Shown: positions 36,001 through 39,000 of the stretch, in pieces
How positions within the stretch are numbered: the first letter of the stretch is position 1
How the letters are laid out: each line of letters starts with the position of its first letter
NCBI GenBank assembly: GCA_051251915.1
Contig: JBPOGF010000018.1
Location: 1-64,000, forward strand
Length of the DNA stretch: 64,000 nucleotides
Direction of reading: 5' to 3'
Source: Akkermansiaceae bacterium
GTDB lineage: Bacteria; Verrucomicrobiota; Verrucomicrobiia; Verrucomicrobiales; Akkermansiaceae
Made by a program: the position numbers

Positions 36001-39000
36001 TAGCGCTAAGTATAAGAATGCCAAAGATCAAGCTGACACCTCAAGAGAAGAAGAGGCTGGCTTATCTTCGTGACCACTACTGTCGTGGGGGAGAGAGTAA
36101 GGTGGCGTGGAGGAGAGGTAAGCCTTTGAAGAAACGCAAGGCTAGGCATTCATACAGGCGAGAGCTCAAGATGGAGTTAGCGAAGCTCTCTCTAAATGAT
36201 AGTCCTGAGTTAACGGCGTGTCGGCGATACACGACGTGCCGACAGCGAGTGATCATCGATTGGGGTGTTCTTTCGTTGCGTGATTACGTCGATAAGGCAT
36301 TGTCTGGACAACGTAAGATTGCATCCAAATAGAGAGCTAGTGGTAAAGGGGCTGGCTTGAATGGATGGGGAGATTACTTAGTATTGTTCTAGATAGAGGA
36401 GGGGGGAGTTGTTTTGCCTACCAGGGAAGCCGTCTAGGCCGGGGCCTGATGGGTTGTTGGAGGGGGCTTCTGGTTCGAAGGCGGGTTTTCTTTGGCCTTT
36501 TTGGCCGCGTTGGGGTTTGGGGTCAATTTTGCCGTCGGCGTTGCGGTCTTCTCCTGGGGCTACATTGTTGAGGTAGTTGATGTTGTCTTTTCTGCCGTCG
36601 GCTACGTGTTGGCTGTAGACTTTGCGTTTTTCGGTTTTGGCGAATGCGGCGTTGGCTGCGAGTAGTGCTTGTTTGATGGTGTCTGGTGTGGCGTCTAGTG
36701 GTAATTCAGCTAGTGCGGTTCCGGTTTGGCCGTATTTGCCGGACTGGATGATGAAGATGCCGGTTTTTTTTGTGGCGTTGTTGATGGATTTTGCCCACTC
36801 GGTGTCTAGTTTTTCTGCGATGTCGTAGAAGAATCTGCCGGTAATTGATGGGTCGTTGAAGACGGTTTGGAGGTTTGCTTTGGCTGTTGGTAGCTGGGCG
36901 TTGGGGCTGACGGTGAAGACTAGTAGTCGCTGGTCAGCGGAGGCGGCGTTGAGTGCTTGTTTGAAGCTGTGGTAGTCTGTGAGTAGTGATTGGTTTACGC
37001 TGGCTGTTGGTTTGTATTTGGCTGCTAGGGCGTTCATGCTGGGGATGACGTCGTTGCCGAATGCGTGCTTGGGGCTTCTGCCTGATCTGGTGAGTCTGGT
37101 TTTGCCGTCTGGGGCGAAGACTACGAAGGCGGTGTTTTCCATTCTGCCGTTGAGTAGTGAGCGGATGAGGGATTGATTTTCTATGCTTTCATAGGTTCCT
37201 AGTCTTACGCAGACGAATTTTTTGGAGGCTGTGATGAATGATTTTTGAGAGAACAAACTGATCTCTGTGGACATGTAGCCGGGTCAGAATGTGCCTGAGA
37301 TGGAGCCACATTGGTGGGCTGCGGCCATGAATAGGATGGGGCGGTTGGAGCGTTTGGCTTCAGCTTTGGCGGAGTCCCAGGTGGAGTGCCAGACGACTGC
37401 TTCTGAGCCGATGGGGAGCTCGACGGCTCCAAGGTCACTGGGGCGTGGGCCCTGGGCGTGGAGGGTGGGAGTGAGTGCACTGAGGGCGATGGTGAGGAGG
37501 GTGACTTTGTATTTGGCTGGGACTTTCATTGTGTTTATTAACTGTTGGGGGTGGGGAAAGTTCCGGAGAAACATGCTTTTTTTTGTTTGCTGGTTATTTG
37601 AGTTCTAGTTTTTCTAGGGTGTCTGGGTCGCTTTTTCCGGTGCTGGATGTTTCTAGGATGTGGAATTGGTGGCCCATGGTGGTGGGGTGGGTGAGGGTTT
37701 GGAATTGGCGGATGAGCTTGAAGTTTTCTGGGGTTAGATTTTCTTCTATGCTGAGGAGCCAGTTTTTGGCGTGGGTGGTGAGGTAGTGGGATTGGGATGA
37801 GAAGTGGGTGAGGTGTTGGTGGTGCTGGAGGTAAGTTTTTGCGAGTTGGGAGAAGTCGACGTGGGCGGTGATGTCTTTGAGGCCGGGGAGGAGTAGGGGG
37901 GCTTCATCGGCTTGGTGTTGGTGGTAGCATCTGAGGGTGCCGGTGCTGCGAGATGCGGCGTAGTAAGAGCTGGTGGTGTGGCCGTAGTCGATGGTGATGG
38001 TGTTGAAGTTTTCTAGCATTTGGGAGGTTTCTGCGATGTGGGTATCTAAGCCGGGGCGGTATTCTGTTTGGTAGTGGTCGGGGAGGGTTGTGACTGGGGG
38101 TAAGGTTTTGGTGAAATTTTCTAGTCCGATGTTAGGGGTAAGTTTTTGGCTGAGGGTGAAGGTTAATTTGTCATTTGTTATGGTGATGTTTTGCTGGTTC
38201 CAGGTGTTGTTTTCTAGTTGGAGGAGGTGGACTGGGAAGGCATCGATGAGTTCATTGCTGAGGATGATGCCGTTTTTTTCGGAGATTTGAGATGGTGATG
38301 TGTGGAGGGAGATTTTTTCTTTGTGGTCGGTTAGGGTTTGAGCTTGGGTTTTCTGGATGGTGTCGAGGTGTTCTATAATATGGTAGTGGAGGTTGGTGTA
38401 GAGGGGTGGGAATGTTTGTTGGATGGTGTTCAGGATATCGAGCGCGAGTTGGCCGTTGTTGGCGCCCATTTCGATGAGGTGGTAGGTTTGAGGTGAGTTG
38501 TTTTCTTGCCAGAGTTGGTGGATGCGGTGGGCTAGGATGGTGCCGAAGCATGATCCGACGCTAACGCTGGTGAAGAAGTCGCCTGCTTTGCCAACGTTTT
38601 GTGCGCCTCTGGTGTAGTAGCCCCATTGTGGGTGGTAGAGGGCGTGGTGCATGTACTCGAAAAACGAGATGTCGCCATTGTCCCGAATCCGCTGAGACAG
38701 AAAACTTTCTAATCTGAGGGTTGCGTCTTGAGCAATCTGGGGGTATGTATGATTTTGATCAGTGGACATAACTATGGGTGGTCTGCGGTAAATAAATAGA
38801 AATCATGAGCTGGAAGAAGTTTAACTCTCGGAGGAAAGTGCGCAAGAAGTCAATTTTCAGGCGCAAGTGGTTTATTATGTTTTTCGGGGCGTGTTTCATT
38901 TGTTTGGTGGTGGCGGTGTTAGGTGCATGGATCATGTCAGATAAATATAGGGATCGCGCGGATACTTATGATTTGAATTTGGTGAATGATTTGCAGGTGC

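Follow-up and report, generated by a model that had tools for sequence, protein, structure and literature searches.

A predicted exported selenoprotein with two thioredoxin-like domains, split by gene callers, in marine Verrucomicrobia and Planctomycetes

In the window, a 64,000-nucleotide stretch of the genome of an Akkermansiaceae bacterium, we find what sequence comparison indicates is a genuine exported selenoprotein of two thioredoxin-like domains that gene callers have cut in two. The gene occupies 36378..37529 on the minus strand (383 codons and a TAA stop at 36378-36380) and has an in-frame TGA at codon 82 (37284..37286, minus strand), which we read as selenocysteine (Sec, U) from the translation and from the conservation of the column in relatives. 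Translated with TGA as U, it gives 383 residues with the sole U at position 82, in the context ...QCGSISGTF-U-PGYMSTE...; under translation table 11 the ORF list has two ORFs instead, of 96 and 298 amino acids. We place the start where relatives begin, at the MK... of a signal peptide; an ATG at 37574, 15 codons upstream, is an alternative. The genome-wide survey's note had proposed a single 383-amino acid gene split at a TGA, and both the translation and the same-column TGA in relatives bear this out.

The TGA is retained in relatives of the window protein. The protein has matches in 52 of 151 genomes of the host's family (in 6 of 20 genera), and TGA is present in 53 of the 59 places listed. 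The six places lacking it cover residues 153-370, 254-369, 10-65, 16-66, 6-55 and 312-353, and none of them spans residue 82. All 30 family loci that we fetched read [FM]AA..C..[IV][SP]G[VT]F-U-P[GA]Y, the TGA falling in one and the same column each time. TGA also occupies the U82 column in 80 of 80 named loci and in 54 of 55 strong places of a Planctomycetota sample, counts that overstate independence because the relatives are kin. A Cys is aligned to U82 in six database relatives (P0039, P0041, P0144, P0163, P0166 and P0217). Such Cys forms are rare: within the top 150 clusters they make up 5 of the 102 informative ones, versus 96 clusters truncated at the TGA. The sole relative with neither U nor Cys at position 82, P0137, has Ser there and has lost C74, P83 and G84 too. 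In most selenoprotein families, according to the part of the GOS survey consulted (PMC2398784), Cys homologues far outnumber selenoproteins.

The coding sequence on either side of the TGA behaves as one unit. In a codon comparison across the family, codons 5' of the TGA vary freely while their residues stay conserved, and this protein-level constraint with free synonymous change indicates that both halves form a single coding frame. The start Met of the downstream window ORF, M86, is missing in most relatives, which read PGYT.TQNSLF at this place. This excludes the downstream part as a gene of its own.

A hairpin follows the UGA at 37248..37266 (minus strand), 21 to 39 nt from its U, and has the form AGAGAUCA-GUU-UGUUCUCU, with the apical loop GUU at 37256-37258 and one U.U mismatch in the stem. 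Taken alone, the window hairpin cannot be told from shuffled sequence by its stability (MFE -6.0 kcal/mol, z 0.20; 113 of 200 shuffles fold equally well), and the signal is visible by comparison only. The 45-nt stretch that bears the hairpin reaches folds of -9 to -19 kcal/mol in relatives. The codons at the apex are frozen: S91 is AGT in 26 of 26 sequences (entropy 0.0), L92 is TTG in 25 of 26 (0.09) and F93 is TTC in 25 of 26 (0.24), while the rest of the about 100 tabulated columns of conserved residues, the TGA column aside, have normalised codon entropies of 0.56-1.0. Comparison places a bacterial SECIS 18-35 nt after the UGA in this family, and over 67 aligned sequences 85.9% of the cells are paired, versus 26-55% when the partner strand is slid. 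Five of the seven stem pairs show compensatory changes, with 85 cells changing on both sides, and the covariation score of 0.499 (0.179 for shuffled alignments) is matched by 0 of 500 shuffles, support that derives largely from a few deep clades. A narrower test on 29 family sequences is weak (75.9% of cells paired, two pairs double-changed, score matched by 35 of 500 shuffles), and the wider alignment of 67 sequences is needed. The divergent stems AGAACA/UGUUCU, GGACAGGA/UCCUGUCC and GGACCAGA/UCUGGUCC hold the identical columns and a GU-containing loop.

These alignments indicate that the family carries a conserved bacterial SECIS hairpin. Like the elements modelled by bSECISearch (the E. coli fdhF type), it lies within the coding sequence just 3' of the UGA, with a 3-nt loop starting G-U, a stem of 6-8 bp and 25 nt from UGA to loop; loop size and stem length match the published bSECIS model in the examined part of PMC13188914 (section 5), as do the G that opens the loop and the spacing of 25 nt. 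Unlike that model, the window copy, at -6.0 kcal/mol, falls short of the -7.5 kcal/mol limit. The earlier statement that this gene has no strict hairpin thus holds for the window copy, which is weak and mismatched, but not for the family, where comparison brings out a conserved and covarying SECIS.

The same genome encodes the machinery for Sec insertion: selB (290.1 bits; cut-off 242.25), selA (505.1; 267.9), selD (379.4; 125) and a tRNA-Sec (58.8 bits; gathering score 47). The selD gene of this genome itself has one TGA. Could the TGA in the window gene nevertheless be a true stop, or the mark of a decayed gene, so that the locus would yield separate products, a pseudogene or readthrough without Sec? 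The callers do split the gene, the database entries are "hypothetical proteins" of 256-300 amino acids, the window hairpin alone matches shuffled stability, and TGA is also an ordinary stop here, ending 184 of the 1621 ORFs of at least 300 amino acids in the genome. Against this stand a TGA column kept across two phyla and replaced by Cys in some relatives, the constraint 5' of the TGA, a downstream part that has no conserved start codon, a covarying hairpin at the standard SECIS distance and the full set of Sec genes, and we give this explanation almost no credence.

Two further genes of this genome, both outside the window, show the same pattern, one on contig C26 (C26:13933-15201, plus strand; ...HRSNC-U-QNG..., 422 amino acids) and one on contig C22 (C22:22608-23351, plus strand; ...KPS-U-PIC..., 247 amino acids), both as translated with TGA as U. 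Translations and kept TGAs agree with the survey's view that all three are candidates for Sec-type recoding with signal peptides. For C26, matches occur in 35 of 151 genomes, and a single TGA is present at 43 of the 45 places; one of the two exceptions covers residues 252-368 only, and the other is weak (E-value 1e-3; residues 55-171) and spans the site. For C22, 74 of 151 genomes match and all 34 best places have the TGA; among the weaker places are full-length ones that have no stop at all. Retention of the TGA in all three families runs in the same direction as reported before, and the counts differ from the earlier 36/100, 5/60 and 11/24 because the genome samples differ. The hairpins described previously for C26 (UAAGGC-AGUCU-GCCUUA) and C22 (CUGUC-AGUUC-GACAG) are present, and the variants in relatives keep the pairing. 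By eye, an apical C-AGUNU-G is common to the three families. Profile comparison of the window protein's family with that of C26 aligns Sec on Sec (hhalign probability 34%, E-value 4.3e-4, 105 columns; BLASTP E-value 0.14), which hints at a Thioredoxin_7-like ancestor common to both, and the family alignment A1 shows no relation to the C22 protein (probability 2%).

The window protein begins with a putative signal peptide (about the first 26 residues; 37452..37529, minus strand), K-rich and then hydrophobic, with a likely cleavage at ...TLHA|QGPRP that was placed by eye. All relatives have such an N-terminal stretch ending in A-x-A-like sites, a conserved GPRP follows directly after the predicted cleavage site, and the AF2 model (mean pLDDT 83.8, pTM 0.79) has a helix at residues 5-24. 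Domain 1 (residues about 41-174; 37008..37409, minus strand) is predicted to be a divergent thioredoxin fold resembling Thioredoxin_7 and DsbD gamma, and carries C74, U82-P83-G84-Y85 and the invariant C107. Its best structural alignment in VIA-align is 3f9u_B (Z 10.5, rmsd 3.1, 121 residues aligned, model 41..174); 3ira and 7tkv (Z about 9), 2dlx and 1vrs_D (Z 8.8) also match. Domain 2 (residues about 181-300; 36630..36989, minus strand) is predicted to be a Cys-less thioredoxin-like fold similar to the b-type domains of PDI, with 9nce_A (Z 10.4, model 182..293), 3d21_A (Z 10.3) and many thioredoxins as VIA-align matches. In Foldseek the whole model matches proteins with several thioredoxin domains (PDI, ERp72 bb', calsequestrin, QSOX1; E-values 3e-5 to 1e-3). 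An acidic loop, GEDRNADGKID (residues 326-336; 36522..36554, minus strand; pLDDT 82-85), follows the pattern D-x-[DN]-x-D-G and reads GEDRDGDGxID in the orthologue clade. It may resemble DxDxDG calcium loops and is a possible Ca2+ site; the Cys forms P0039 and P0041 lack it. The C-terminal tail (residues 346-383; 36381..36494, minus strand) is rich in Arg, Gly and Pro, is predicted to be disordered (pLDDT below 50 from residue 346) and varies in length in relatives (alignment columns 395-453).

Sequence models detect this fold weakly. Thioredoxin_7 matches the window protein at E-value 0.0085 (16.6 bits; cut-off 27), PF00085 does not match at E-values up to 10, and at the same limit NCBIfam gives 0 families. 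The survey had placed the protein below every Pfam gathering score, outside NCBIfam and only weakly thioredoxin-like, and these scores together with the predicted folds agree. Among 28 members, 26 match Thioredoxin_7 at E-values up to 0.1 (best 5.6e-6) and 10 match Thioredox_DsbH, all below threshold; the Cys forms score 15-22 bits on Thioredoxin_7. No member scored one by one reaches a gathering score, 26 members being judged on E-values alone. The family profile finds no relative among the sequences of solved structures, with one chance-level match (E-value 0.59). Where new partner domains had been expected, the partner in this protein is, according to Foldseek and VIA-align, a second Cys-less thioredoxin-like domain and not a new fold.

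How does the protein compare with known families? The strongest catalogued match is to the Trx7/PDZ (seleno)protein model NF041199, likewise a bacterial selenoprotein with Sec within a Thioredoxin_7-type domain. The match is very weak and concerns the Cys forms (19.4, 15.2, 14.0 and 12.2 bits; cut-off 300), which align over only the first 60-70 or so of 390 model positions, while the window protein does not match. The motif of NF041199 is CxxU in the examined part of PMC13188914 (Table 1), in contrast to C-x7-U-P-G-[YK] here, and the second domain is thioredoxin-like, with no PDZ domain in Pfam scans. The VPGUxxT thioredoxin-like selenoprotein (NF041382; NF041383 as catalogued) does not match the window protein either; two Cys forms score 12.5 and 10.9 bits (cut-off 350), and the motif is [IV][SP]G[VT]F-U, not VPGU. 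With the periplasmic carriers DsbD gamma, DsbH and Thioredoxin_7 proteins (PF13899, PF03190) the family shares the domain-1 fold and export, both predicted. It differs in having C-x7-U-P-G-Y where they have CxxC, with the redox residues separated by a loop of 8 residues, and in being predicted as soluble and two-domain, without the fused membrane domain of DsbD. The PDI family (PDI, ERp72, ERp44, QSOX Trx1-Trx2, Pyrococcus PDO) has the same tandem of a redox-active and an inactive thioredoxin fold in exported proteins, and the best whole-model Foldseek matches are of this type (8pko_B, E-value 3.2e-5; 4el1_A, 3.8e-5; 3ec3_A, 4.0e-5). Identity is 7-17%, and because the global TM is low (0.17-0.36; TMq 0.17-0.26; rmsd 13-19 A) these matches show tandem thioredoxin folds, not a PDI-like arrangement of domains. 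Unlike PDI-type families, which are eukaryotic or archaeal, the window protein has no CGHC motif and no ER signals.

The putative active site is nearly invariant. In 129 sequences C74 is kept in 126, G79 in all 129, U or C at position 82 in 128, P83 and G84 in 127 and C107 in all 129; the motifs CxxC, CxxU and UxxC are absent, and CxxC occurs in no member. In the AF2 model Sec82 stands at the start of the helix that follows the first strand. The attacking Cys of thioredoxin-fold enzymes occupies this same place, with C-P-x-C where this protein has U-P-G-Y. The analysis shows the signals for recoding, the conservation and a predicted fold; from there on, the reaction, what Cys74 does, which way electrons flow and what the substrate is are inferred, as follows. 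UGA codon 82 would be decoded as Sec during translation, the short hairpin recruiting SelB and tRNA-Sec through a G-U-containing apical loop 25 nt past the UGA. After export the mature protein would have four parts, namely the Thioredoxin_7/DsbD-gamma-like domain, the Cys-less thioredoxin-like domain, the acidic D-x-D-x-D-G loop and the disordered basic tail. Sec82 would attack a disulfide in the substrate, or some other form of oxidised sulfur, and the mixed selenenylsulfide would be resolved by Cys74, which lies on the loop that precedes Sec82 (C-x7-U); domain 2 would hold the substrate, as PDI b-type domains do. We guess that C74 is the resolving residue; Sec82 could have the invariant C107 as its partner instead. 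Two DsbD_TM/CcdA-type genes and one VKOR in this genome are possible redox partners. Judged from sequence and predicted fold, we consider it probable that the gene encodes one exported selenoprotein that acts as a selenol/thiol oxidoreductase in the periplasm or outside the cell.

The same selenoprotein might instead reduce peroxide or sulfenic acid in the manner of GPx or a 1-Cys peroxiredoxin. In such a cycle H2O2 or an organic hydroperoxide would oxidise Sec82 to a selenenic acid, and Cys74 with an external reductant would recycle it. GPx and Prx-type selenoproteins likewise have Sec at the start of the first helix, where the AF2 model places it in this thioredoxin fold. The single Sec without a CxxC partner resembles the UxxS/UxxT families in the examined part of PMC13188914 (Table 1), an AhpC/TSA gene lies 42 nt downstream in Rubritalea profundi (one of the seven relatives' loci scanned besides the window), and the hosts are marine aerobes, with the window DNA occurring in runs of seawater metagenomes. 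GPx and Prx families, however, are not near the top of the sequence or fold matches; the top matches of domain 1 are disulfide carriers of the DsbD-gamma/DsbH type, and a second thioredoxin domain that looks substrate-binding is what protein-disulfide enzymes, not peroxidases, typically have. We therefore regard a peroxidase as unlikely. More improbable by far is a non-enzymatic role, in which the protein, with Sec82, Cys74 and Cys107 as ligands, would hold or transport a soft metal or metalloid (Hg, Cu, Cd, As or selenium itself) in the envelope, with the acidic loop and basic tail as tethers. Three conserved chalcogen ligands would suit it, as would the EF-hand in the Cys-form relative P0163 and the DxDxDG-like loop of the orthologue clade, and several metal-handling selenoprotein families are catalogued in the examined part of PMC13188914 (Table 1). 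Yet Pfam and NCBIfam scans match no metal-binding domain or motif, the examined neighbours include no metal transporter or resistance gene, and C107 may be buried, because it lies in a predicted beta strand.

It is tempting to extend the oxidoreductase reading to a Sec-dependent, PDI-like catalyst of protein folding in the envelope or outside the cell, specific to marine PVC bacteria and replacing machinery of the DsbA/DsbC type. The grounds are that the Pfam models DSBA and DsbB have no match in this genome (98% complete), that VKOR and DsbD/CcdA are present, and that the family has almost only Sec forms; we think this extension doubtful. If it were true, these polysaccharide degraders, rich in sulfatases, would rely on selenium supply for oxidative protein folding.

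With 479 clusters (50% identity, E-value ≤ 1e-3), the family is a large one. It had been thought private to marine Akkermansiaceae, which holds in that it is narrow within Verrucomicrobiota (0 of 400 other genomes match in a phylum-wide sample, in addition to the 6 of 20 genera given above) but fails with respect to Planctomycetota, where 66 of 401 sampled genomes match and where the greater part of its diversity is found. Stieleria marina K23_9, with a complete genome, and members of Rubripirellula, Rhodopirellula and Fuerstiella are among the named relatives, and the ESM Atlas matches of the table-11 ORF are unnamed clusters, mostly of Planctomycetota (22 of 30). The deepest diversity in a FastTree tree is Planctomycete; the tree is rooted on a Planctomycete paralogue clade, the root is not one clean branch, and MAG labels are those of the submitters. 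A transfer of the family between Planctomycetota and marine Akkermansiaceae seems to have occurred, and a Planctomycete origin is a lead.

We scanned the flanking ORFs against Pfam in the window and in seven relatives' loci. The neighbours are plsX, Methyltransf_28 and PBP1A in the window and Lgt, Cys/Met-PLP and AhpC in R. profundi; elsewhere there are sulfatases at two loci and a rhodanese at one. Because the neighbours differ between loci, no operon partner or pathway is indicated, and the two sulfatase cases carry no weight since sulfatases are very common in these taxa. A promoter and terminator scan of 35900-38900 shows nothing near the gene above shuffled expectation. The listed sequencing runs that hold this DNA include no RNA run; the DNA runs are seawater or marine metagenomes, and two of them may be its source.

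On comparative evidence, and as far as the catalogue parts examined extend, these proteins form an uncatalogued large selenoprotein family of marine Verrucomicrobia and Planctomycetes. The motif does not occur in the examined parts of the 2026 catalogue of 119 families (PMC13188914), and a full-text literature search found no description of the motif or the family. The examined part of PMC4807772 (Table S9) lists one "hypothetical" planctomycete Sec candidate with a Cys match in Rhodopirellula sallentina, with no sequence given. Public annotation truncates the gene at the UGA, even in the cultured Rubritalea profundi and Oceaniferula spumae, and so the redox-active half, with the signal peptide and Sec, is missing from databases. 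Recognition of the family would raise the selenoproteome counts of marine PVC bacteria, add a family not found in the examined parts of the 119-family catalogue and supply a clean seed, its SECIS defined, for curation in NCBIfam and Pfam. Both the C-x7-U-P-G spacing and the scarcity of Cys forms are out of the ordinary, and they suit the family well to the question why certain sites demand selenium.

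The window gene is a 383-codon frame (36378-37529, minus strand) whose sole interruption is a TGA at codon 82 (37284-37286, minus strand), and genetic code table 11 splits it into ORFs of 96 and 298 amino acids. The N-terminus of the protein is a typical export signal (MKVPAKYKVTLLTIALSALTPTLHA|QGPRP...), and the sequence around the TGA reads ...RPILFMAAAHQ-C-GSISGTF-U-PGYMSTEISLFSQKSFITASKKFV-C-VRL.... In public records, the truncated product of this family is named "hypothetical protein." The genome (G000; 36 contigs, 98.4% complete) contains the entire selenocysteine (Sec) apparatus: selA (505.1 bits; cut-off 267.9), selB (290.1 bits; cut-off 242.25), selD (379.4 bits; cut-off 125) and tRNA-Sec (58.8 bits; gathering score 47). 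The selD gene (C1:268332-269258, minus strand; locus L010) has one in-frame TGA of its own, so SelD itself would contain Sec. Elsewhere in this genome TGA is an ordinary but minor stop, ending 184 of the 1621 ORFs of at least 300 amino acids (TAA, 963; TAG, 474).

Relatives of the window gene occur in 52 of 151 genomes of its taxonomic family (6 of 20 genera). The TGA is present in 53 of the 59 matching places, a count inflated, like all TGA and hairpin counts here, by the kinship of the relatives; the six others are partial matches that leave residue 82 uncovered. All 30 fetched loci have the TGA within the same motif, [FM]AA..C..[IV][SP]G[VT]F-U-P[GA]Y, and a search across species, with one genome for each, gave 249 relatives, with the TGA at the site in 80/80 loci kept. 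In a Planctomycetota sample, 66 of 401 genomes have a match, and one TGA is found in 54 of 55 strong places (E ≤ 1e-30); the 55th begins past the site, with the TGA on the piece upstream of it. Codons 5' of the TGA vary freely while the encoded residues stay conserved, and relatives do not conserve the Met with which the window's downstream ORF begins; the two halves are therefore one gene. Six database relatives (P0039, P0041, P0144, P0163, P0166 and P0217) have Cys exactly at the TGA position; P0137 has Ser, and P0026 has W, perhaps because its gene was called under another genetic code. On these four grounds (same-family loci, other collections, a single frame and Cys forms) the in-frame TGA is more than a chance event, and its reading as a real stop falls far behind. 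We have little doubt that the gene truly encodes a selenoprotein and carries a SECIS, the hairpin just past the UGA that directs Sec insertion. The split selenoprotein gene described in the genome-wide survey's note, with its TGA kept in frame among relatives, is confirmed.

The same note had seen no strict hairpin in this gene. The SECIS hairpin, AGAGAUCA-GUU-UGUUCUCU, lies at window 37248-37266 (minus strand), with one U.U mismatch in the window copy. By itself this copy is weak: a 51-nt stretch folds at -6.0 kcal/mol, and 113 of 200 shuffles do as well. Among relatives, the 45-nt stretch holding the hairpin folds at -9 to -19 kcal/mol. Two comparisons of aligned sequences, in our reading, settle the question. 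For synonymous freezing we used about 100 codon columns with a conserved amino acid in 28 usable coding sequences (two of the 30 loci were left out, for lack of a start codon or for an N). Normalised codon entropy is 0.56-1.0 in all tabulated columns except the TGA and three others, Ser91 (AGT, 26/26; entropy 0), Leu92 (TTG, 25/26; 0.09) and Phe93 (TTC, 25/26; 0.24), and these three codons form the hairpin apex. For covariation we used 67 sequences, hand-picked for variety out of about 134 distinct ones, and seven pairs (columns 22-28 with 32-38), the control being the 3' partner slid by 1-3 columns. Paired cells amount to 85.9%, compared with 26-55% for the slid partner; both sides change in five of the seven pairs (85 cells); and the covariation score of 0.499, against 0.179 for shuffles, is reached by 0/500 of them. 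Restricted to 29 family sequences, the covariation test is weak. Some compensatory changes alter the protein itself (D-R-S-F-L-S to D-Q-S-F-W-S). Planctomycete paralogues have the hairpin in identical columns with different stems (GGACAGGA-GUU-UCCUGUCC, GGACCAGA-GUU-UCUGGUCC and GGAUAGAA-GUU-UUCUAUCU), and in Pirellulaceae orthologues it reads AGAACG-GUC-UGUUCG. The published bacterial SECIS model has a loop of 3-9 nt with G in its first two positions, a stem of 4-16 bp, a location 16-37 nt past the UGA and a stability of -7.5 kcal/mol or lower (PMC13188914). The window-family element, with a GUU loop that starts 25 nt past the UGA, agrees with most of this model, whereas the window copy falls short of the stability value.

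Two other genes for secreted proteins in this genome, both outside the window, are split at a TGA: the C26 gene (C26:13933-15201, plus strand; 422 amino acids, ...FFGDHRSN-C-U-QNG...) and the C22 gene (C22:22608-23351, plus strand; 247 amino acids, ...KPS-U-PIC..., a UxxC motif). Matches to the C26 protein occur in 35 of the 151 family-sample genomes, with one TGA in 43 of 45 places, and matches to the C22 protein in 74 of 151, with the TGA in all 34 best places; weaker full-length C22 places free of any stop exist and may be Cys forms. The hairpins reported after both UGAs are present, and in relatives the letters change but the pairing persists (AAGGC/GCCUU to GAGAC/GUCUU for C26; CUGUC/GACAG to CCGUC/GACGG for C22). 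For the C22 protein Pfam offers only SHD1 (E 0.0032), and for the C26 protein no useful match; NCBIfam has no match to either. By eye only, the three families of this genome have a common sequence at the SECIS apex, C-AGU-N-U-G (AUCAGUUUGUU, GGCAGUCUGCC and GUCAGUUCGAC; window 37248-37266, locus L165 of the C26 gene and locus L177 of the C22 gene), which may reflect recognition by the SelB of this lineage. A distant relationship between the C26 protein and the window family is possible: hhalign gives a probability of 34%, with Sec aligned to Sec. Homologues of these two families, each with its own TGA, are adjacent in two relatives' genomes (G063:C155:60208-61200 and 61331-62395; G078:C32:650-1507 and 1937-2821), which fits the weak profile similarity.

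An AlphaFold2 model of the window protein, built on a 28-row alignment (mean pLDDT 83.8, pTM 0.79), strongly supports two predicted thioredoxin folds downstream of the signal peptide; the final 38 residues are disordered. The nearest matches of domain 1 (approximately residues 41-174) are exported domains of the DsbD-gamma/DsbH type (3f9u_B, Z 10.5, rmsd 3.1, 121 aligned), followed by 3ira, 2dlx, 7tkv and 1vrs_D (Z 8.8-9.4). Domain 2 (approximately residues 181-300) has no Cys and matches plain thioredoxins at Z ~10. The top Foldseek matches of the whole model are proteins with several thioredoxin domains, namely PDI, ERp72 bb', calsequestrin, QSOX1, ERp44 and Pyrococcus PDO (E 3e-5 to 1e-3), at a low global TM of 0.17-0.26; on the model, this shows tandem thioredoxin folds and not a common domain arrangement. 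A short helix begins at residue 82, after a strand (65-70) and a small hairpin-like loop (73-78). We take this to be the location of the attacking Cys in thioredoxin-fold enzymes, with U-P-G-Y presumably standing in for C-P-x-C. Near-invariant residues among 129 family sequences are W47, E57, A58, R60, C74 (126 sequences), G79, U/C82 (128), P83, G84, V106, C107 (129), R109, E114, N132, P140, R151, P153, D199, G231, G267 and H308. The sole relative without Sec or Cys at the site also lacks C74, P83 and G84. The orthologue clade has a conserved GEDRDGDGxID loop, which we take to resemble DxDxDG calcium sites, and then a variable Arg/Gly/Pro-rich tail. The Cys form P0163 has an N-terminal EF-hand (EF-hand_6, E 3e-5), so calcium-type motifs recur at different places in the family. 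In the 179-amino-acid database protein P0157, the signal peptide runs directly into ...TQNSLFATEEF..., the usual post-site sequence, and thus lacks the redox loop; a deletion, a misassembly or an error in gene calling could each account for this.

The family had been thought private to marine Akkermansiaceae, and this is wrong. Among the named relatives are Rubritalea marina, R. profundi, Roseibacillus and Oceaniferula spumae, together with Stieleria marina K23_9, whose genome is complete, Rubripirellula, Rhodopirellula and Fuerstiella. Within Verrucomicrobiota the family is narrow: none of 400 other genomes in a phylum-wide sample matches the window protein. An exhaustive HMMER search against 1.84 billion cluster representatives gave 479 clusters at E ≤ 1e-3 (280 at E ≤ 1e-10). 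Among the best 150 clusters, 96 start just past the site, the mark left when a gene is cut at the TGA; Cys is found in 5 and Ser in 1, and the other 48 are fragments. In a FastTree tree of 121 sequences, whose root is not clean and whose MAG labels come from submitters, the deepest group is a diverse Planctomycete-only clade (motif W-U-PGKQxMDRSFLS), and a well-supported 91-row clade mixes 61 Verrucomicrobial and 29 Planctomycete rows with five label changes. The pattern is suggestive of exchange between these two groups of marine bacteria, with the family at home in the Planctomycetes. One Planctomycete-labelled contig (L071) carries two Sec-containing paralogues approximately 2 kb apart (L071:3229 and L071:5280), one of orthologue type (PGYTHTQNGLF) and one of paralogue type (PGKQNMDRSFLS), each with a separate hairpin.

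It is strongly supported that the hairpin directs insertion of Sec at codon 82 and that the protein is exported. Sec82 would then attack a substrate in the envelope or outside the cell, at a disulfide or other oxidised sulfur species. The selenenylsulfide would be resolved by Cys74, on a loop eight residues upstream, or alternatively by C107, and the Cys-less second domain may bind the substrate. We consider this composite explanation, oxidoreductase chemistry included, probable; its rivals for the function are a peroxidase-type cycle and metal or metalloid binding. In this genome two DsbD_TM/CcdA-type genes score above the cut-off and a single VKOR is present, and the Pfam DSBA and DsbB models have no match in this 98.4% complete assembly, so both reductive and oxidative supply are conceivable. 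The VKOR sits within a 707-amino-acid ORF on contig C34, and the window holds a third DsbD_TM-like stretch, below threshold (16859-17542, minus strand), inside a 1374-amino-acid ORF. The neighbours of the window gene, a Methyltransf_28 (MidA-like) methyltransferase (37594-38769, minus strand), PlsX (34948-35976, plus strand) and a class A penicillin-binding protein (38805-41294, plus strand), include no redox-related gene. The neighbourhood is uninformative on function because neighbours differ at every locus inspected. An AhpC/TSA (peroxiredoxin-type) gene starts 42 nt past the family member at one Rubritalea profundi locus (L058:4122-4688) and is absent from the other loci inspected.

Bacterial selenoproteins with a thioredoxin fold and an in-gene SECIS are a familiar kind of protein. 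In sequence, this family is set apart. As the survey's note had stated, the window protein reaches no Pfam gathering score (Thioredoxin_7, 16.6 bits against 27) and matches no NCBIfam model; the Thioredoxin_7 model picks up 26 of 28 members at E ≤ 0.1, the best at 5.6e-6. NCBIfam matches to the Cys forms are faint (best NF041199, 19.4 bits; cut-off 300), and a family profile sequence search found no relative of solved structure. A 2026 review lists 119 families and subfamilies with motifs; no C-x7-U or F-U-P-G-Y motif occurs among the families in its section 7, parts 1-2, including Table 1, and the NCBIfam models cited there give no match (PMC13188914). In the portions consulted, the GOS survey (PMC2398784) has no such family, BSepDB (PMC13326102) has nothing on Planctomycetes or Verrucomicrobia, and one study, including its Table S9, has one unnamed "hypothetical" Sec candidate in a planctomycete (PMC4807772), which may or may not belong to the window family. 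Full-text searches of the literature gave no other account of the family; subscription journals and supplements could still hold one. In the survey's interpretation, then, the selenoprotein call and the novelty of the family hold, the taxonomic restriction does not, and the function is one that we infer. This family is unusual in three traits: its C-x7-U spacing is long, its tandem is of the a-b type, and Cys forms are nearly absent.
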